The position numbers were made by a program, and so were the translations under genes. The notes beneath the pieces were generated by a model that saw nothing but the letters and a program-made list of their open reading frames with translations, was not told the DNA's origin and did no database searches. Positions 3,754-40,503 of a DNA stretch of 53,902 nt are shown one piece after another (the stretch's first letter is position 1; each line of letters begins with the position of its first letter). Location: contig CAYIAX010000005.1 of NCBI GenBank assembly GCA_964361595.1, positions 1 through 53,902 on the forward strand. Direction: 5' to 3'. The stretch comes from an uncultured Candidatus Saccharibacteria bacterium (GTDB taxonomy: Bacteria; Patescibacteriota; Minisyncoccia; UBA6257; 2-01-FULL-56-20).

Positions 3754-4332
3754 ATGAAATACGACGCGATTTTTATGATGGGTCCGCAGGGCACCGGCAA
3801 GGGGACACAGGCGAAGGTTCTGGCGGAGCAGTTAAATTTTTTTCATTGGGACATGGGAGCGGTGCTGCGTGAAAACTTGGACTGGAAGTTTCCCGACGGC
3901 AAAACCGTGGGCGAGATCATTAATGACGGCACACTGCTCTCGGACGATCGCCTGCTTCATATTTTCAAAGCCAAATTGAATTTACTGCCAGCCGATCAAG
4001 GCATTATTTTCGACGGCATTCCGCGCCGCTTGGGGCAAGCGCAATTCCTGCTCGATTTTTTGCGTTCCCAGGGGCGCGGTAAACTGGCGACAATCTTTAT
4101 TGATATTCCCAGGGAGGAATCGTTGAAGCGCCTGCTTTTACGAGCAGAGAAAGAAGGCCGTACGGATGATACCCGCGAAGCCATCGAATTCAGGCTGGAG
4201 CAGTATGCAAAGGAAACCTTGCCAACCGTGGAATTTCTGAAGCAGAACTCGGACTACTACGAAATTGACGGGCGGCCTGCGATTCCGGAAGTTACACGCC
4301 AGATTTTTGTAGCTTTGGGTTTGGCCGAATGA
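3754..4332 (+). CDS. adk: Adenylate kinase (short, LID-less)
   Basis: GPQGTGKGTQA P-loop, DGIPR, GRTDD; ATG 3754 preferred over TTG 3715. Confidence 0.9.
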   Translation: MKYDAIFMMGPQGTGKGTQAKVLAEQLNFFHWDMGAVLRENLDWKFPDGKTVGEIINDGTLLSDDRLLHIFKAKLNLLPADQGIIFDGIPRRLGQAQFLLDFLRSQGRGKLATIFIDIPREESLKRLLLRAEKEGRTDDTREAIEFRLEQYAKETLPTVEFLKQNSDYYEIDGRPAIPEVTRQIFVALGLAE

Positions 4333-4895
4333 AAAAGCACATCATCACAATTGCCGGCTACCCCGGCATCGGCAAATCAAGCACCGCGAAAGGCGTGGCG
4401 CAGGAGTTGGGCTACGAGCATTTCTCCTCCGGCGATTTGATGCGCCAAATGGCCGCCGCGCGCGGGCTCTCGGTTGAGGAAATAAATCAGGCCGCCGAGA
4501 AACAGAAAGAGATCGATTTTATGGTAGATCACAGGCTGCAAAAACTCGGTGAGGAGAGGGATAAGCTTGTAATCGACTCGCGTCTGGCCTTCCATTGGAT
4601 CCCCGATTCCTTCAAGGTGTATTTGGATCTTGATCCGCAAAGCGCGGCCGAACGCACTTTTATGCATATCCAAAAAGAGGGCCGAGCCAGCCAAACTGCA
4701 AGTTCGACGGAAGAGGTGCTTAAAAACACGGCGGAACGGATAGCAAGCGAACGCAAGCGTTACCAAATTTTATACGGCGTGGACATCGGCGATAAAAGCA
4801 ACTTCGATCTCGTCATAGACACTAAAACCAATGATCTGAACCAAGTCATCAAAATTGTATTAGCCGAATATAAAAAGTGGCAGGAAACAAGCTGA
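4329..4895 (+). CDS. cmk: Cytidylate kinase, archaeal-like (Cmk2) family
   Basis: ITIAGYPGIGKSS, SSGDLMR, VIDSRL, ERKRY..YGVD..FDLVIDT. Confidence 0.8.
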   Translation: MKKHIITIAGYPGIGKSSTAKGVAQELGYEHFSSGDLMRQMAAARGLSVEEINQAAEKQKEIDFMVDHRLQKLGEERDKLVIDSRLAFHWIPDSFKVYLDLDPQSAAERTFMHIQKEGRASQTASSTEEVLKNTAERIASERKRYQILYGVDIGDKSNFDLVIDTKTNDLNQVIKIVLAEYKKWQETS

Positions 4896-5656
4896 TGCGC
4901 TTAAAAACTCCTGCGGAAATCGAAATCATGGCGCAAGGAGGCAGGCTTCTAGCCGTCATTTTAGCTAAGCTCGCAAAAATGGTAGAGCCCGGGATGACCG
5001 GGTCGAAGCTCGACGCCGAATGCTACCGGCTGATCGTAGAGGCGCGGGCCGAGCCCGCTTTCCTGGGTTATAAGCCATCGGCTGCGTCTAAACCTTATCC
5101 CGCGACGATCTGCATTTCCGTAAACGACGCAATTGTGCATGGCTTGCCGAACCTTTCTCCGTTTAAGCCGGGGGATGTAGTAAAGCTTGATGCCGGTTTG
5201 CGCTATAAAGGCTTCTATCTCGACGCGGCGGTGACGGTTACGGCCGGCGAAGCTTCAAAAAAAGCAGCCGCGCTAATCGAGGTTACGGAAACCGCCCTGG
5301 CGCTGGGCATTAAAACCGCTCGTCCCGGAAACACGCTGGGCGACATCGGTTGGATTATCCAGACACATGTCGAGAAAAACAATTTTTCCGTTTCGGAGTC
5401 TTTGACCGGCCATGGCATCGGCAGAAAACTGCATGAAGAACCGGCGGTCCTGAACCGAGGCAAAGCTGGCGAGGGAGATGTTTTGTCAGCAGGCATGGTT
5501 TTGGCCATCGAGCCGATGGTAGTGGCGGGGAAGAGCGGAAAGGTGCGTGAAGGAAAGGACAGCAGCTGGCGCGCCGTGGACGGCTCGCTTACGGCGCACT
5601 TCGAGCACACGGTGGCGATTACGGAAAACGGACCGCGAATACTAACGAGAATCTAG
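4877..5656 (+). CDS. map: Methionine aminopeptidase type I
   Basis: SVND.IVHG.P, GHGIG..LHEEP, AIEPM, AHFEHT. Confidence 0.96.
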   Translation: MAGNKLMRLKTPAEIEIMAQGGRLLAVILAKLAKMVEPGMTGSKLDAECYRLIVEARAEPAFLGYKPSAASKPYPATICISVNDAIVHGLPNLSPFKPGDVVKLDAGLRYKGFYLDAAVTVTAGEASKKAAALIEVTETALALGIKTARPGNTLGDIGWIIQTHVEKNNFSVSESLTGHGIGRKLHEEPAVLNRGKAGEGDVLSAGMVLAIEPMVVAGKSGKVREGKDSSWRAVDGSLTAHFEHTVAITENGPRILTRI

Positions 5657-5742
5657 AATCTAGAACCCAGAATCTAAAACTTAGAGTCTAGAAACTAAAA
5701 TGCTAAGATAATACAGTAGTTTATTCTGAATTCTAGCTTCTA
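5648..5742. repeat. TAGAATC/TAGAACC heptamer array with inverted partner
   Basis: Tandem ~7-mers followed by TTCTGAATTCTAG. Confidence 0.7.
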
Positions 5743-5747
5743 AACCG

Positions 5748-6500
5748 ATGAAACCCTATCTTTCAATTATTATTCCAGCTTATAACGAAGCGGAGCGCAT
5801 ACCGCATACCTTGATCGATATGGATAAGCGCCTCGAAGGCAAGCCGTGGAGTTACGAGATTTTAGTCGTGAACGACGGCTCGAAGGACCGGACCGCGGAA
5901 GTTGTGAAGGGGCTTGCGTCGAAGATCAAAAACCTGAAACTCGTCGACAACATCGAGAACAAAGGCAAAGGCGGCGTGGTCCGGCAGGGGATGCTAGTGG
6001 CCCAAGGAGACATCCGTCTTTTCACGGACGCCGACAACTCAACTTCAATCGATCACTTTGATCAAATGATCCCGCTCTTCAAGCAGGGTTACGACGTTGT
6101 TTTTGCTTCCCGCGCAATCAAGGGAAGCAAGCTCGATCCGCCGCAGCCGCTTTACCGGCAAATTCCGGGCAAGCTGGGCAATCTGTTTATTCAAGTTTTG
6201 CTTTTACCCGGCATTTGGGATACGCAATGCGGATTCAAGGCCTTCAGCGTAAAAGCAGCCGAACAAGTATTCAGTTTGTCGCGGATCACGGGTTGGGGTT
6301 TCGATGTAGAAATTTTATCCTTAGCCAAGGCGCTCGGCTATAAATTGAAGCAGGTGCCGGTCCACTGGGTGAACGATCTGGGTTCGCGCGTGGGGGCCTC
6401 GGCCTATTTGCAAGTTCTTTGGGAAACCGTTAAAATCCGCCTATGGCTTTGGCGGGGGGTATATGCCCTCAAGAGCGTACCGCCGAAGACGGGTGTCTAA
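5748..6500 (+). CDS. GT2 glycosyltransferase (polyprenyl/dolichyl-phosphate glycosyltransferase-like)
   Basis: IIPAYNE, VNDGSKD, FTDAD, DTQCGFK, WGFDVE. Confidence 0.9.
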   Translation: MKPYLSIIIPAYNEAERIPHTLIDMDKRLEGKPWSYEILVVNDGSKDRTAEVVKGLASKIKNLKLVDNIENKGKGGVVRQGMLVAQGDIRLFTDADNSTSIDHFDQMIPLFKQGYDVVFASRAIKGSKLDPPQPLYRQIPGKLGNLFIQVLLLPGIWDTQCGFKAFSVKAAEQVFSLSRITGWGFDVEILSLAKALGYKLKQVPVHWVNDLGSRVGASAYLQVLWETVKIRLWLWRGVYALKSVPPKTGV

Positions 6501-33995: not shown

Positions 33996-36554
33996 ATGCT
34001 TGATTCGCTTAAAAAATTTTTCAGTTCGCGTTCTTTAAGCGGATTTTTTGAGACCGTTAAAACCATAAACGCGCTCGAGCCGGAAATCCAGAAACTTTCT
34101 AATGAGGAATTGAAGCAAGCTGGTTTGGATTTAAAAAAATCCGTAGAAGGCGGGGAGCCGACTGAAGACGAACGGGCAAAAGCATTCGCGCTTGTGCGCG
34201 AAGCCGCGCGGCGCACCTTAAACCAGCGCCCTTATGACGTCCAGCTTGTGGGCGGGCTTGTGCTTGACAAGGGCGCCGTGGCGGAAATGGCCACGGGCGA
34301 AGGAAAAACTTTGGCCGCGGTCGCGCCCGCATACTGGAACGCGCTTAGAGGCAAAGGAGCGCATATCGTAACCGTGAACGAATACCTGGCCCGCCGCGAT
34401 GCGGTTTGGATGGGACAGATCTACCGCAGGCTGGGGCTCTCGGTTGCTTGTCTCGTGCCCAACGCAGCCTTCTTATACGACTCTGAATGGAAGATACCGG
34501 AGGAAGGCGAGAAGTTGATTGACCGCGAGCGGGACGAAACAGGCAGCTTCTTGGTCCAGCAGGAATTTTTGCGCCCGATCTCCAGGCGTGAAGCCTATTT
34601 GGCCGATATCACCTATGGCACGAACCACGAATTCGGTTTTGACTATTTGCGCGATAACCTGGCCTACCACATGGCCGACCAGGTCCAGCGCGAGCATTAT
34701 TTTGCAATTATTGACGAGGTAGATTCGATTTTAATTGATGAAGCGCGCACGCCCTTGATTATCGCCGCGCCCGATACGGAATCGAGCGAATATTATAAAG
34801 TGTTTGCCCGCGTGGCGGAAATGCTCACGCCCGAAGAGGATTACACCGTTGACGAGAAGCACCGTTCGGCGAGCATTACCGAGAGCGGTATCGAAAAAAC
34901 GGAAAAATCATTGGGGCTTGCGAATCTCTACGGGCCGGAAAATCTGCGCCTTGTGCATTATCTTGAAGAAAGCTTGCGGGCCAAAGCGCTTTATCATCGC
35001 GACCGCGATTACGTGGTGAAGGGCGGCGAAGTTTTGATCGTGGACGAGTTCACGGGCCGCTTACTTCACGGCCGCCGCTATCAGGGCGGTCTCCATCAGG
35101 CGATTGAAGCCAAAGAGAGCGTCCAGGTAAAACAGGAATCACGAACTTACGGCAAGATTTCCCTCCAAAATTATTTCCGGCTCTACAAAAAGATTTCCGG
35201 CATGACCGGCACGGCGCAAACTTCCGCGGAGGAATTCCATAAGGTTTACAACCTGGAGGTATTTTCGATCCCGACGAATAAGCCGATGATCCGCGAAGAC
35301 AAGAATGATTTGATCTATAAAAATTCGCAGGCGAAGTGGCGCGCCTTGATCGAAGATATTCGTGTGCGCCATAAGCAGAGCCAGCCGATCCTGATCGGTA
35401 CGGCTTCAATCGAAAAGAATGAATTGGTTTCCGCGCACTTGTCGCGCGAGCACATTCCGCACGAAGTTTTAAATGCTAAGAACAACGAACGCGAAGGCGC
35501 GATCATCGCCCAGGCCGGCAAACCGGGCGCGGTAACTGTGGCGACGAATATGGCCGGCCGCGGCGTGGACATTATTCTCGGAGGCAACCCTCCAAGCGCA
35601 GACTTAGCGCAGACTGTACGCGGACTTGGCGGACTCCACGTGGTTGGCACCGAACGGCACGAAGCCCGCCGGATCGACAACCAGCTGCGCGGCCGTTCCG
35701 GCCGTCAAGGCGATCAGGGCAGTTCGCAATTCTATCTTTCGCTTGAAGACGATCTCTTGCGCATCTTTGGCGGCGACCGCATTAAGTCGCTCATGGATCG
35801 CTTCGATCTGCCTGAAGACGAACCGATCCAGCTCGGCTTTGTCTCCAGCGCGGTGGCGCAGGCGCAGGCGCGCGTCGAGGGCGCGAATTTCGACTTGCGG
35901 AAACATTTGCTCGAATACGATGACGTTTTGAATAAACAGCGCACGGCGGTATATAAGCGGCGGCAGGAATTTTTGACGAGCCTGAACCAGGAAACTTTGG
36001 CTGACAGCATTTACCAAGCTGCCCATGATTTTGTTGGTAGATTCAGGGAACAGCCGGCCATGGAACCGGAAACGGATCTGGACGCCGAATTCAAAAAGCT
36101 GCTCCAGGAAACCGGCATTGCGAACGAGAAGCATCCGGTTCCGGAAAATTTAGACGAGGAAAGCATTAAGAGTTTGCTTTTGAAGCGGAGTCTCGAAGCT
36201 AGTCTTGATCCACTTACGATCCAAAGGATTTTGGGCGTGCTCGATATGCTTTGGATGACGCACTTGGAAAACCTCGAGGCGCTTTCCGAATCCGTCGGCC
36301 TTCGCGCCTATGGGCAAAAGGATCCGCTTGTCGAATATCGCGAAGAAGCGCGAAAATTATTCAAAGACTTTTGGGCTAATTTCAACGCTTGGCTCACGAT
36401 GAATATATTTAAACTAGCAAAGAGCAAAGAGCAAATGGCAAATAGTAAAAAGGCGGGCTTGCCCGCCGGAGGGCAGAGCGGCGCGAAGGTAGGTCGCAAC
36501 GACCCCTGCCCATGCGGTTCAGGGAAGAAATATAAGAGATGTCATGGGGCGTGA
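33996..36554 (+). CDS. secA: Preprotein translocase ATPase SecA
   Basis: [40 protein letters not shown]-terminal [19 protein letters not shown]. Confidence 0.98.
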
Positions 36555-36565
36555 GGAATAAAAAT

Positions 36566-37012
36566 ATGGAAACGAAACAGGTAAAAATTAGAAATGCGGA
36601 AACTAATGACATTGAAGCAATTCGAGGATTGGTTGATTATCTTATGCAAGTTGAAGAGGTAGAGAATGTTGAGGGCAACGTTGAAAAAATAATGAAAGAT
36701 AGGATTCTGCCATCGATAGATTCTGATACAGCGATAACTTTTGTAGCAGAGGTTGGTGGTAAAGTTGTAGGAGTATTACTGGTAGAGATAAAGCGAGGTT
36801 TGGTTCTGTCACTGGCGTACATAGCAGTTTATCCAGAAAATCAGAAACTAGGAGTTGGTAAAAAATTGCTGGAAAAAGCCGAAGAATACGCCAAGAGTAA
36901 AAATATCCATATTTTGGAGGGACTGATTCACAAAGACAATCAAAAATCGCGAGAATTTCACGAAAAAAATGGATTTGAACTGTTTGGCTACAATTTGCGG
37001 AAAGAAATTTAG
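36566..37012 (+). CDS. GNAT-family N-acetyltransferase (cassette 1)
   Basis: IRNAE..DIEAI, IAV.PENQKLGVGKKLL, N..SREFHEKNGF. Confidence 0.88.
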   Translation: METKQVKIRNAETNDIEAIRGLVDYLMQVEEVENVEGNVEKIMKDRILPSIDSDTAITFVAEVGGKVVGVLLVEIKRGLVLSLAYIAVYPENQKLGVGKKLLEKAEEYAKSKNIHILEGLIHKDNQKSREFHEKNGFELFGYNLRKEI

Positions 37013-37125
37013 CCGCATGACATTTTCTATATTCAGACGAATCCGACAGTGTCATAAATCGGAAAACGGCTTAAAATATAGAAAATCCGTGCGGTTGGTT
37101 ATTAAAACAGTAGAAGTGTCACGGG
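37013..37125. repeat. 113-bp hairpin-plus-core site, copy 1
   Basis: CCGCATGACATTTTCTATATT pairs with AATATAGAAAATCCGTGCGG; homologous to 39153-39265. Confidence 0.85.
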
Positions 37126-37207
37126 TCATGAGGATAAGAAAAACCCGAGGGACATAGTAGCTTCCGTCAGTCGGCTACATCACCCTCGGGGGAGTAACAG
37201 AGATGTT

Positions 37208-37630
37208 ATGGGAGAAAAAAAGCAAAAACTAACTGGAATAACATTTATTCTCGTGCGTCCGAATAGTGAGATGCTACTTCAGTTACGAGACGAAAAATCA
37301 AGATATTATCCTAATACGTGGTGTTTCCCCGGAGAGAGTGCCGAGGGGAACGAAGAGCCCATACAGATGGTTATTCGAGGAGTGCAGGAGGAATACAATG
37401 TTCGGGTATCAAAAAATATATGTCAATTTCTGACCGTAAATCATTTGCCACATATTAACCAAGAAATCGCTGTATTTATATGCAAAATCGATGATAATCA
37501 AACTCCAGTTATGAGAGAAGGGAAGAAAATGCGATGGATGGGTATAAATGAGATTAAGAAACTGGAGCTCGGATTTGAGCAGAATAAAATTCTACCATTC
37601 ATCGAAGAGTTCCTGCGTGGTAGTCAATAA
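37208..37630 (+). CDS. NUDIX-family hydrolase (cassette 2)
   Basis: LLQLRD, WCFPGESAEGNEEP..IRGVQEEY (degenerate Nudix box). Confidence 0.8.
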   Translation: MGEKKQKLTGITFILVRPNSEMLLQLRDEKSRYYPNTWCFPGESAEGNEEPIQMVIRGVQEEYNVRVSKNICQFLTVNHLPHINQEIAVFICKIDDNQTPVMREGKKMRWMGINEIKKLELGFEQNKILPFIEEFLRGSQ

Positions 37631-37663
37631 GCAACAAAGATGTCATGGGGCGTAGGGTAAAAT

Positions 37664-38602
37664 ATGATATACAATCCTGAAAAACCATATAAAGAACAAA
37701 TTCTGGGATTAATTAAAAAAACTTGGAATACTCCTTATGTTTCTATTCATGATGGAGCATATTCGGTATTCAGAAGAAAATTCGATTACCCTGAAGTTGA
37801 TCATACAGACGGAATAGGAACAAAGGGAATATACCACTGGAAGAAGCGCAGCTTCAAAGGCGCTGTTTTGGACGCTTTGGCAATGAATTTGAACGATCTG
37901 GCAATGGCAAGAGCCGTTCCATATAAGCTTCAGTGCCATATTATTGTGCCCGAAGATGACCAGAGAGCGATTATGGAGATCATAAAGAGTTTGGTTACGG
38001 AGTGCATGAAACTAAAAATCGCTATTACCGGAGGAGAGACATCGGTTCAAAACAATATGGACGGTCTTGATATCAGTTTGACGGTTAGCGGATTTGTGCG
38101 AAGAGAGAAGCGAAACAAATTTCAGGCGGGTGATATATTAGTTGGTTTCGCAAGTAATGGGTTGCATTCGAATGGGTTTACGATGGTACGAAATGCGTTT
38201 GCTAATAGATTCCGCAAAGAGCTTATAGAGCCAACAGTGATGTATTTGAAGTCAATTCAGGATATTCAGGAAAGGTATGACATTCATGGCATGATGCATA
38301 TAACCGGTGGGGCGTTTACAAGGTTGAAAGGGTTGCTCTCAAAAACTGATGCGGTTATCACGAATGATCATTCTTTGAAACCACAGGGCATATTTCGGGA
38401 ATTATATGCACATAGAATTACAGATCGCGACATGTACAAGACTTTCAACTGCGGAATAGGATTTATATTGGCAGTTTCCAAGAAAGACGCTCTGGGAATT
38501 GTTACCCAAATAAAAGGCGCAGACATAATTGGAGAAGTTACGCAGGGATCGGGAAAGGTCAGGATAGCGTCAATGTTCAGCGGAAAGAGAATAAAAATTT
38601 GA
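37664..38602 (+). CDS. PurM-like (AIR synthase family) protein, copy 2 (cassette 3)
   Basis: YPEVDHTDGIGTKG, DALAMNLNDLA, GGET, SNGLHSNG, HITGG, TFNCGIG. Confidence 0.85.
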   Translation: MIYNPEKPYKEQILGLIKKTWNTPYVSIHDGAYSVFRRKFDYPEVDHTDGIGTKGIYHWKKRSFKGAVLDALAMNLNDLAMARAVPYKLQCHIIVPEDDQRAIMEIIKSLVTECMKLKIAITGGETSVQNNMDGLDISLTVSGFVRREKRNKFQAGDILVGFASNGLHSNGFTMVRNAFANRFRKELIEPTVMYLKSIQDIQERYDIHGMMHITGGAFTRLKGLLSKTDAVITNDHSLKPQGIFRELYAHRITDRDMYKTFNCGIGFILAVSKKDALGIVTQIKGADIIGEVTQGSGKVRIASMFSGKRIKI

Positions 38603-38644
38603 ACCCCGTGGGTTAGCGAATAAGTAGCAAAGGTGTCATGGGCA

Positions 38645-39160
38645 ATGAGGAAAGAATATAACAAAGAGTCGTGGATAAATCCAAAAGTTGAAGTCCGAAA
38701 TTCAGAGTTCGGTGGTAAGGGTTTATTCGCTAAAGAAACGATAGAAAAGGATGAGATTGTGATAGTATGGGGAGGAACATTAATGACGGAAGAAACGATA
38801 AAGAGGGGTAATTACAGAAAAGGTACGAGCGTCGAGATAGGCGAGGGTATGTATTTTGCTGGAAAGCCAAGCGAATCGCCAGGAACTGATGACTTCTTGA
38901 ATCATTCTTGCGATCCCAACTTATGGCTAAAGGATGAAGTTACGCTGATTATGAGAAGGGATATTGAAAAAGATGAGGAGTTGACTGCTGATTATGGAAC
39001 ATGGGTCTCACGACCAGAGTGGAAAATGGAATGCAGATGTGGATCGAGGTTATGTCGAAAAATGATCACAGGCAACGATTGGAAGTCAGCAGGGCTGCAA
39101 AAAGGATACGGAGACCACTTGTCGCCGTATCTAAAAGAACGAATCAAAAAATCCGCATGA
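38645..39160 (+). CDS. SET-domain methyltransferase with post-SET CxCxxxxC (cassette 4)
   Basis: GKGLFA, FLNHSCDPN, ELTADYG, CRCGSRLCR. Confidence 0.92.
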   Translation: MRKEYNKESWINPKVEVRNSEFGGKGLFAKETIEKDEIVIVWGGTLMTEETIKRGNYRKGTSVEIGEGMYFAGKPSESPGTDDFLNHSCDPNLWLKDEVTLIMRRDIEKDEELTADYGTWVSRPEWKMECRCGSRLCRKMITGNDWKSAGLQKGYGDHLSPYLKERIKKSA

Positions 39161-39265
39161 CATTTTCTATATTCAGGCAAATCGGATTGGTAATCGATAC
39201 GAAAAATGGCTTAAAATAAAGAAAGTCCGTGCGGTTGTTTATTAAAAAGGCAGCATTGTCATGGG
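39153..39265. repeat. 113-bp hairpin-plus-core site, copy 2
   Basis: Same length and ends as 37013-37125. Confidence 0.85.
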
Positions 39266-39352
39266 AAAAAGTTCTTATAAAAATAATCATTCTCACATTC
39301 TCAAGAATGTGAGAATGTTGTATGGAAACATTTCTACAGAATCAATAAATCT

Positions 39353-39886
39353 ATGCGCATAAATGTCGGTTCGAAAAATCAAACGAAGGCGCAGGCGGTA
39401 GCGGAAGCCCTATCCGGACACGAATTGTTTAAAGATGCCGAGGTGGTGGGCGTTGATGTGGCGAGCGAACAATTTGGCCATCCGATTAAACTGGCGATCG
39501 TGGTCAAGGGCGCAATGGACAGAGCGAAGCAAGCATTCAAGGATTGCGATTATAGCTTTGGCATTGAAGGCGGTTTGATTGAAGTGCCGGAAACAAAAAG
39601 CGGTTATATGGAAGTTGCTATCTGCGCTATCTATGATGGTTCGCAATTCCATCTCGGCATGTCGCCCGGTTACGAATGGCCCAAAACAGTTACGGATTTA
39701 ATCGTGAATAAAGGCTTGGATGGCAGCCAGGCTTTGCGCGAAGCCGGATTTACAAGCCATGAGAAGATCGGCACGGCCGAAGGCGGAATTTGAATTTTAA
39801 CCAAAGGTAAAATTAATAGAAAAGAATATAACAAACTCGCTGTGCTTATGGCCCTTATCCATTTGGAGAATAAGGAGCATTACTGA
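39353..39886 (+). pseudogene. yjjX: Inosine/xanthosine triphosphatase (YjjX/DUF84) with in-frame TGA at 39791
   Basis: VGSKN..K, GAMDRA, GIEGG; homology appears to continue past the stop (GGI*ILTKGKINR...). Confidence 0.7.
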
Positions 39887-40418: not shown

Positions 40419-40503
40419 TGGAAAAGCACATTCTAACATTCTGCAGAATGTTAGAATGTTTGTGTTTTCTAATTCGCGCGAATTAGAAAATATAACTAGC
40501 AAT

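Follow-up and report, generated by a model that had tools for sequence, protein, structure and literature searches.

A candidate array of single-gene cassettes at the SEC-C codons of secA in a groundwater Parcubacteria genome, and its apparent relatives across the order

Bacteria of the candidate phyla radiation (CPR) have genomes of about 0.8 Mb in which few mobile elements have been recognised, and genetic systems in culture are lacking. The means by which they acquire accessory genes are an open question, considered here for the locus behind the secA gene of a groundwater bacterium (genome of 778,217 bp in 23 contigs, 99.9% complete). Its order belongs to the Parcubacteria (CPR) and includes genomes titled Candidatus Liptonbacteria and Candidatus Harrisonbacteria. 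We analysed a stretch of 53,902 nucleotides of this genome (the window), in which secA (33996..36554, + strand) is an intact open reading frame (ORF) of 852 amino acids with a C-terminal SEC-C zinc finger. It is followed by four small genes bounded by sites that resemble the DNA encoding this zinc finger. What are these sites, and how did the genes come to lie between them? Our best overall explanation, which we hold with slightly better than even confidence, is that four single-gene cassettes, acquired horizontally, form an array in the last codons of secA (about 36,5xx to 39,27x) and that this array belongs to a family of such arrays in the order. The window array would be an old four-cassette member of an apparently undescribed, widespread Parcubacteria system anchored at the SEC-C codons of secA.

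According to this explanation, the cassettes would have entered the essential secA gene at its last codons, and each would end in a recombination site that is derived from, or mimics, the SEC-C zinc-finger DNA. In some cassettes the site would be the 3′ part of a conserved 113-nt hairpin element. The sequence following the site would supply one codon, a stop codon and a purine-rich ribosome-binding stretch, such that a cassette in the first position would complete SecA and couple its own gene to secA expression. Cassettes would move as discrete units via recombination at the sites, and the array of the window would be one of a family that is patchily spread in a single Parcubacteria order, mostly behind secA and sometimes behind other housekeeping genes.

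The four genes are bounded by five co-oriented sites of about 50 nt on the + strand, which are modelled on the SEC-C zinc-finger codons of secA. Each site has a left half (CCNTGCGG), about 20 nt of spacer and a right half (TGYCAYGG). The motif TGTCAYGGG matches five times in the 53,902-nt window, always on the + strand (at 36540, 37117, 37641, 38634 and 39257), compared to 0.32 matches expected, and five matches were reached in 0 of 100 shuffles; all five bipartite sites reported in a first-pass annotation of this DNA lie at the positions given there. The bipartite pattern TGCGGTT-N18-24-TGTCAYGGG has three matches in the window (0.00 expected), which are the only ones in the complete 778,217-bp genome sequence, and the reversed-pattern control gave 0. 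A sequence-only profile of 55 positions (R1), built from 19 aligned sites of the host and of related genomes, found five matches in the host genome (E 1e-12 to 9e-6), all located in the array. The next best match had an E of 0.84; within this genome the sites are confined to the array. The SEC-C motif at 36495-36548 is likewise the only one of the host genome.

Site 1 (36508..36561; R1 47.6 bits, E 1e-12) comprises the SEC-C codons of secA, the stop codon and a purine-rich stretch. Sites 2 (37086-37138, R1 profile match) and 5 (39225-39272, R1 25.6 bits) form the 3′ ends of two copies of a 113-nt repeat (37013-37125 and 39153-39265), here called the long element. Sites 3 (37610..37662; R1 34.6 bits, E 1.3e-8) and 4 (38604..38655; R1 38.0 bits, E 1.1e-9) are short, and three of the five sites lack an inverted partner. 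Site 3 belongs to the 'TAGTCAATAAG' subfamily, contains the stop codon of the preceding gene and is identical to the secA end over 16 nt, as the annotation had correctly noted. A sixth, partial copy of the site lies at 37199-37212; it is a right-half copy preceded by a GC hairpin (37143-37192) and overlaps the start of the second cassette gene (whole feature 37143..37212, + strand; weak R1 match at 37193-37222, E 0.7). The same module of hairpin and half-site is also found 3′ of the secA stop in several relatives (L065, L067, L073, L077, G014, G023 and G028).

Each interval between the sites contains a single gene on the + strand. Cassette 1 codes for a GNAT acetyltransferase (36566..37012; Pfam PF00583, 4.7e-16), cassette 2 for a NUDIX hydrolase (37208..37630; PF00293, 1.7e-8), cassette 3 for an AIR-synthase-related, PurM-like protein with AIRS_C and AIRS domains (37664..38602; PF02769, 1.3e-16 and PF00586, 5.4e-12) and cassette 4 for a SET-domain protein (38645..39160; PF00856, 5.3e-15). 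Pfam agrees here with the gene identities proposed before, and the reported drop in GC is also confirmed. GC content falls from about 0.50-0.59 in secA to 0.35-0.43 over 36600-39400, with about 0.40 in the array and about 0.52 in the flanks, and within the window the array is the GC minimum and the GC-skew maximum. DNA homologues of the four cassette genes were not found in the about 60 loci that we collected; only the sites and the long element match. SecA is kept intact, as had been proposed, and the further proposal that the cassettes are transcribed from secA is supported insofar as the array contains no terminator-like site on the + strand.

We compared the reading register in 62 non-secA sites and 26 secA ends, which are 88 of 94 hand-picked and hand-labelled R1 matches (six were dropped where the extract ended, and weaker matches were excluded). 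The register C-H-G-X-stop is present in 22 of the 26 true secA ends and in 50 of the 62 non-secA sites, and a purine-rich 4-mer follows directly 3′ in 47 of the latter. Judged from these letters, the stretch 3′ of the site looks made to complete SecA and to start the next gene. An in-frame stop within 13 codons upstream is found in 28 of the 62 non-secA sites; thus, these are not translated as a protein tail. The non-coding variants form subfamilies that are common to many genomes, such as the 'TAGTCAATAAG' spacer, which is shared by site 3 of the window and about ten other genomes. Independent decay of resident secA ends would not yield such subfamilies, which argues that the sites are cassette-borne.

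The stop codon and purine-rich 4-mer after TGYCAYGG in these 47 sites would also be expected if the sites were conserved intercistronic expression signals (stop, ribosome-binding site and an RNA stem-loop with a part in coupling, processing or stability) of a housecleaning operon that lies behind secA and is inherited vertically, with no mobility at all. Some cassette ORFs may even start inside a site, since the GNAT ORF has an upstream in-frame ATG at 36539 in site 1 and the SET ORF an in-frame GTG at 38633 in site 4; the missing + strand terminator and the folding of the long element would fit as well. Against this stand the conservation of the left half and of the spacer, which have no evident role in expression, and the GC content of the array, which is 10 points below that of the host. 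Together with the data from related genomes described below, these points make a pure expression role improbable.

Relatives were examined up to about 8.4 kb 3′ of secA in 20 genomes (19 of the same family and G028 from another family of the order). Additional R1 sites (E ≤0.01) were found in six of them (five sites in G023, two each in G003 and G028, one each in G006, G015 and G014), and the remaining 14 have 'empty' secA ends. All 38 R1 matches in these 20 relatives are co-oriented with secA. A search of metagenomes for the SecA tail returned 25 loci, among which the best match over the full length has only 58% protein identity. Of these loci, 22 were searched with R1; eight carry additional sites downstream of secA, and 31 of 31 matches are on the secA strand. 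An even sampling of the order (151 genomes) showed at least one R1 match (E ≤1e-4) in 98 genomes, usually the secA end itself, and at least two in 25 genomes. In 21 of these 25, two or more matches share contig and strand and are no more than about 2 kb apart.

The genes located 3′ of secA vary from genome to genome. They are small, often co-oriented and code for NUDIX (many), glyoxalase, HAD, HD, CYTH, DUF1653, DUF5674, ACT, GDSL, cupin and HicAB proteins; HIT, Ham1, GNAT, SET, DUF3850 and ParE also occur across the arrays. Sites persist while the number, order and content of the cassettes vary and empty secA ends exist, as the first-pass annotation had predicted. Its restriction of the system to secA has to be given up, since other genomes have arrays with these sites behind further genes: anchors include rplI (L093), an inositol monophosphatase gene (L091), dnaK-dnaJ and ruvB (both in G164) and gltX (G028). 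In a further set that includes non-secA anchors, 32 of 33 R1 matches are on the strand of the anchor gene or array. That the layout recurs across many relatives with a different set of genes suggests a mode of gene collection that has not been described. An approximately 700-nt indel behind a different type of SecA tail in L074, L075 and L076 was considered and set apart; it is not bounded by sites and is unrelated to the array system.

The family has two types of SecA tail that occur side by side: a short form and a form lengthened by six residues (CPCGAKHEDGRPKKYKHCHG). Genomes with the long form frequently retain a remnant of the short tail just 3′. Inside arrays, SEC-C tails are also found in frame on ORFs other than SecA, namely on an NAD-dependent epimerase (L098, 2244-3185), a 65-aa ORF beside HicA (L092, oriented 5605-5802) and a small ORF with a tail of the long type (L070, 4426-4566). 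In G008 (C8:11060-11119) a free-standing 28-aa frame is 80% identical to the last 20 SecA residues and lies away from the fragmented secA.

The long element provides the second line of evidence. Its two copies in the window (copy 1, 37013..37125, + strand; copy 2, 39153..39265, + strand, which marks the array end) share blocks of 83% identity over 66 nt and 91% over 34 nt and score 127.9 and 121.2 bits with a covariance model of the element (R2). Its 5′ arm corresponds to the secA end in inverted form (22 nt, 82% complementarity) and is followed by an AT-rich stem of 12 nt. Folded as single-stranded DNA, copy 1 forms a long imperfect hairpin (−19.1 kcal/mol, z −4.0, 0 of 200 shuffles as good), and copy 2 reaches a z of −2.0. 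In the predicted fold the 5′ arm can pair with either the left or the right half of the site, and the stem imitates the duplex of the secA end with an unpaired patch at the TGACA/TCCG position.

An exact two-block pattern derived from three copies, in which the blocks are invariant by construction, was searched against a collection of species-representative genomes. It retrieved 11 records assigned to Kaiser-, Buchanan-, Harrison- and Liptonbacteria and to the Parcubacteria/Patescibacteria group, some of them labelled Saccharibacteria. Outside the blocks, the element in these records matches the window copies at 75-84% identity. Homology starts sharply at the first base after the stop codon of the upstream gene and ends at TGYCAYGG(G), and the adjacent genes are unrelated or only distantly related among the records. 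For example, the adjacent GNAT and SET proteins of L093 and the window are 25% and 42% identical, and the elements 75-78%. The first-pass annotation had suggested that site 5 could be the displaced original secA end. It is not, since it belongs to this element family; the few bases after it (CHGKKFL-stop) may or may not stem from the old secA end. All 11 loci carry R1 arrays with 32 matches in total, and at each locus the matches are on the same strand as the element. In the order sample, R2 detects the element in 10 of 151 genomes (one or two copies each, spread over 10 families) and in none of the seven other sampled members of the host's own family. Viral contigs gave 0 matches to the exact pattern, and plasmids and phages gave no blastn match. 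Both R1 and R2 match only this locus of the host genome, unlike dispersed repeats such as repetitive extragenic palindromes (REP) or miniature inverted-repeat transposable elements (MITE), which have many copies scattered through intergenic DNA.

The upstream cassette gene is reversed in five of the 11 loci and has its own promoter (TTGACA-17-TAnnAT) and a ribosome-binding site abutting the element. The sites keep the orientation of the array around these reversed, self-promoted genes, an arrangement that a purely translational or regulatory role hardly explains. The idea of vertically inherited expression signals is further weakened by close relatives that differ in gene content from the SEC-C codons onward and by the patchy spread of the element. 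In addition, Rfam has no family for it: the Rfam 15 covariance models gave a chance snoRNA (E 0.55) as the sole match at E ≤1 over 36300-39500, and eight related loci gave tRNAs only. The five reversed genes are small and of unknown family (oriented coordinates L089 4555-4994, L092 4698-4994, L095 4668-4994, L097 4638-4994 and L098 4288-4767). Each is preceded by a strong sigma-70-like promoter and an AGGAGG that border directly on the long element, and a terminator-like end near the preceding site is common to them; this surround is a conserved 'expression shell' around variable genes.

Do the cassettes behave as discrete units? An ASCH-like gene (its Pfam ASCH match is only at E 6e-4, below the cut-off) is present in the secA arrays of G023 and G086, which are members of different families. 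The two copies are 78.6% identical in DNA over 481 nt, and the secA genes of the two genomes 71.6% over 1645 nt. Homology extends from a few bases past one site to about 14 nt past the next, and the cassette has different neighbours and array positions in the two genomes. A DUF5674 gene followed by a conserved gene of about 110 aa recurs in three genomes, downstream of secA in G023 and G012 and of ruvB in G164. Two loci with secA genes 87.9% identical over 3027 nt (L063 and L065) lose identity inside the SEC-C codons after CCATGCGG, beyond which the DNA is unrelated. This comparison of arrays gives good support to the view that cassettes move as discrete units. G028 and L097 were rejected as a further case of cassette sharing because they have only about 70 nt of cassette-end sequence and no gene in common.

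The clearest insertion is found in L092, where a 73-bp direct repeat of the secA end (71 of 73 positions identical, 97%) surrounds an insert of about 1.15 kb with a reversed gene, a long element and a HicA gene. Judged from its repeats, this insertion is a recent event. In several genomes with the longer tail, a GC hairpin and then the complete second half of the short tail (…GSGKKYKKCHGK-stop) come after the secA stop, and in L073 this module of about 140 nt forms an imperfect repeat that flanks a methyltransferase-like gene on either side. L070 contains two copies of a DUF3850 cassette (851-1130 and 4137-4416, 84.6% identical). A DUF3850/ASCH-like gene of 88 aa is the first cassette behind secA in L070, L081, G012 (L041, 364-663) and G014.

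These cases can be explained in two ways. The first, which we favour tentatively and by analogy, is site-specific recombination by a trans-acting enzyme on the folded or duplex site, comparable to attC x attI recombination in integrons or to the CTX phage with Xer. The second yields the same array with no dedicated enzyme. DNA taken up from relatives and carrying a secA end or a site would circularise or pair, and RecA would integrate it via 50-140 nt of homology, either by a Campbell-type single crossover or by a double crossover between two sites; the sites would then act as portable homology. We regard this RecA route as somewhat doubtful, and it is nearly as likely as the favoured site-specific route; a smaller share of the probability goes to a non-mobile regulatory role and to other explanations. 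The repeat in L092 extends to the left into the GRNDPC codons past the usual site, and both of its differences are at synonymous third positions, as expected for the secA copy of a related strain. Its high identity, the imperfect repeat around the methyltransferase gene in L073 and the duplicated DUF3850 cassette in L070 fit the RecA route as well, as do the variable left boundaries, the absence of an array-linked recombinase in all flanks examined and sites that lack a dyad. RecA alone leaves unexplained why non-coding site variants and the 113-nt hairpin are kept at 75-84% across distant lineages beside unrelated genes and why the sites have a single orientation even around reversed genes. 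Moreover, the arrays behind dnaJ, gltX and ruvB start without secA homology, and RecA is poor on 50-nt stretches with 60-70% identity, which is typical of most neighbouring sites. The repeated site-specific insertion proposed in the first-pass annotation is thus not established, since homology-driven integration of the Campbell type fits several cases at least equally well.

If an enzyme acts on the sites in trans, which one could it be? The only tyrosine recombinase of the host (PF00589) is an Xer-like protein of about 300 aa, which is encoded next to rpsO on other contigs than the array. Its gene is split (C10:23174-23853 and C13:1-414; L035 and L034), and the two halves overlap by 18 residues, which places contigs C10 and C13 next to each other. 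This unlinked protein would be the sole tyrosine recombinase available for action in trans. Exactly one PF00589 match was found in seven of 10 array-bearing genomes, none in two and three in one; one or more were found in 143 of the 151 genomes sampled from the order. That the window contains no recombinase, as stated before, agrees with the family searches of the host genome.

Several results weigh against the favoured explanation or its site-specific form. Neither a serine recombinase nor an HUH Y1 transposase was found in the 99.9% complete host genome. In the 25 genomes with several sites, none of the PF00589 matches listed (29 weaker ones are not among them) is within 100 kb of the array, and the nearest listed match on the same contig is about 287 kb away (G052). 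Integrase, resolvase and transposase families are absent among three sets of array-flanking ORFs (111, 114 and 30). The five duplex sites contain no convincing dif-like 11-6/8-11 dyad: the best in each has six to seven of 11 positions paired, and 368-485 of 500 shuffles did as well or better. Throughout the window GC skew stays positive, with no switch at the locus that would indicate the terminus. On its left side the repeated block does not have a fixed boundary (about 30, 50, 73 and 140 nt), and homology-driven events fit this better than a fixed att site. In the hairpin only one of 14 pairs is changed on both sides, the element being too conserved for real covariation. Sites 2-5 are only 61-71% identical to the secA copy; the window array is accordingly old and may be inert. 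Finally, contigs of four sequencing runs of one study, which drop rare variants, contained no cassette-skipping or circle junction of the host genome, and one of these contigs spans 35800-39113 exactly as in the window. A record going back from 39224 to 38629 (27 other letters in between, depth 2.3) was rejected as a host circle, because it resembles a relative with the long element directly before the SET cassette.

The one-gene-per-site layout, which had been likened to integrons and is borne out here, raises the question whether this is simply an ordinary integron cassette array, that is, a cluster of attC sites lacking integron integrases (CALIN), with the integrase elsewhere or lost. Each site has one promoterless, co-oriented ORF; toxin-antitoxin, GNAT, NUDIX and glyoxalase cargo is typical of chromosomal integrons; and two of the five sites lie in 113-nt imperfect hairpins (z −4.0 and −2.0), attC sites being imperfect hairpins of about 55-140 nt. 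The region 36400-39400 has 0 matches to the attC cores GTTRRRY and RYYYAAC on either strand, in agreement with the earlier statement that canonical cores are absent. The host genome has no IntI-like gene, only its single Xer-like recombinase, and three of the five sites are short and lack an inverted partner. An ordinary integron array is therefore very improbable.

To the right, the array ends immediately 5′ of a perfect palindrome with 14-nt arms (39288..39317), a terminator-like sequence found by inverted-repeat search. It is one of a host repeat family with 11 genome copies, which indicates that host-type intergenic DNA resumes at this position. This palindrome and the one at 40429-40458 have the arms CATTCTNACATTCT and AGAATGTNAGAATG. 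In the best sequencing run the summed contig depth is 668 in the bin 39225-39361 and about 7 in neighbouring bins, which suggests that the palindrome is common to many organisms of the sample. Related palindromes directly precede half-sites in L094, G086, G164 and L070. The next gene codes for a yjjX-like NTPase (NTPase_I-T, 39353..39886, + strand; PF01931, 6.1e-26). It has an in-frame TGA at 39791-39793, which is present with the same letters in a sequencing-run contig. With this TGA read as X, the product is 52% identical over 173 aa to that of a relative, where a glycine is opposite the TGA. The TGA could be a nonsense mutation, an error or a local recoding; TGA serves as a stop codon in host secA and in other host genes. 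In family f7 of the order in-frame TGAs are found in an otherwise intact secA (G030, two TGAs) and in Xer-like genes (G090, G133, G152 and G168, one each), which may reflect a different reading of TGA in that family.

With some reservation, we propose that the array of the window might represent a native gene-capture platform of CPR bacteria that is distinct from integrons. The SEC-C DNA would be the primary site, and site-mimic cassettes, including those with the 113-nt element and its secA-end-like stem, would supply the last codon of SecA, the stop codon and their own ribosome-binding site and would be moved by an unlinked recombinase, Xer-like or other. If this is true, such a platform, placed at the 3′ end of a gene that is essential and well expressed, would let these bacteria acquire and express genes by a compact route; the cargo here is mostly nucleotide 'housecleaning' and small-molecule-modifying enzymes plus toxin-antitoxin pairs. 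The defined DNA site and the conserved 113-nt element could then be tested as a tool for gene insertion in these organisms. A full-text search of the literature gave no description of cassette arrays or recombination events located at the end of secA or its SEC-C codons, whether in CPR or in other organisms, in line with the first impression that this is not a described system.

How does this array compare with known systems? Among the closest are integrons, especially sedentary chromosomal ones and CALIN arrays (see Cury et al., 2016; PMC4889954). The similarities are arrays of small, mostly promoterless and co-oriented single-gene cassettes, each with a 3′ site, a homogeneous family of hairpin sites of about 110-120 nt beside unrelated genes, with an inverted repeat of the right end of the site flanking the ORF, toxin-antitoxin cassettes and expression from an upstream promoter. 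In contrast, the arrays described here have neither IntI nor the GTTRRRY/RYYYAAC cores. Their anchor is the coding 3′ end of an essential gene and not an attI site beside an integrase, site 1 being attI-like in its role. Most sites here are short and non-palindromic, and the start of the cassette must give the anchor gene a codon and a stop.

Staphylococcal cassette chromosome (SCC) elements integrate at rlmH/orfX, rebuilding the 3′ end of the gene, and accrete in tandem. A related paper is PMC10581047, and tycheposons at tRNA genes (see bioRxiv 10.1101/2020.12.28.424599) are a second group of this kind. In such elements the target gene likewise stays intact, and each unit lies between direct repeats of the 3′ end of that gene. 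The units form tandem stacks, some of which include units with cargo but no recombinase. Direct repeats of the secA 3′ end that bound inserts and leave the target intact are found in the window and in L092 (97%, 73 bp). These elements or their helpers encode ccr or tyrosine recombinases, whereas here none serving that role was found in the host genome or beside the 60-odd arrays. The units here are also single genes of 0.5-1 kb.

Integrative mobile elements exploiting Xer (IMEX), such as the CTX phage, use a folded single strand that mimics dif and is recognised by Xer. A folded hairpin that imitates a duplex target would thus have a precedent, and the host has a single Xer-like gene. A further group is formed by the pdif/dif modules of Acinetobacter plasmids (see PMC6449649; PMC13141974). 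There, small gene modules with no recombinase of their own are bounded by short sites and moved by the housekeeping recombinase of the host. The pdif sites are alternately inverted, whereas the sites described here are direct, lack the 11-6-11 dyad, are not located at a GC-skew switch and lie in protein-coding DNA. If the Xer-like enzyme of the host or plain homologous recombination drives these arrays, integron-like arrays can arise without an integron integrase.

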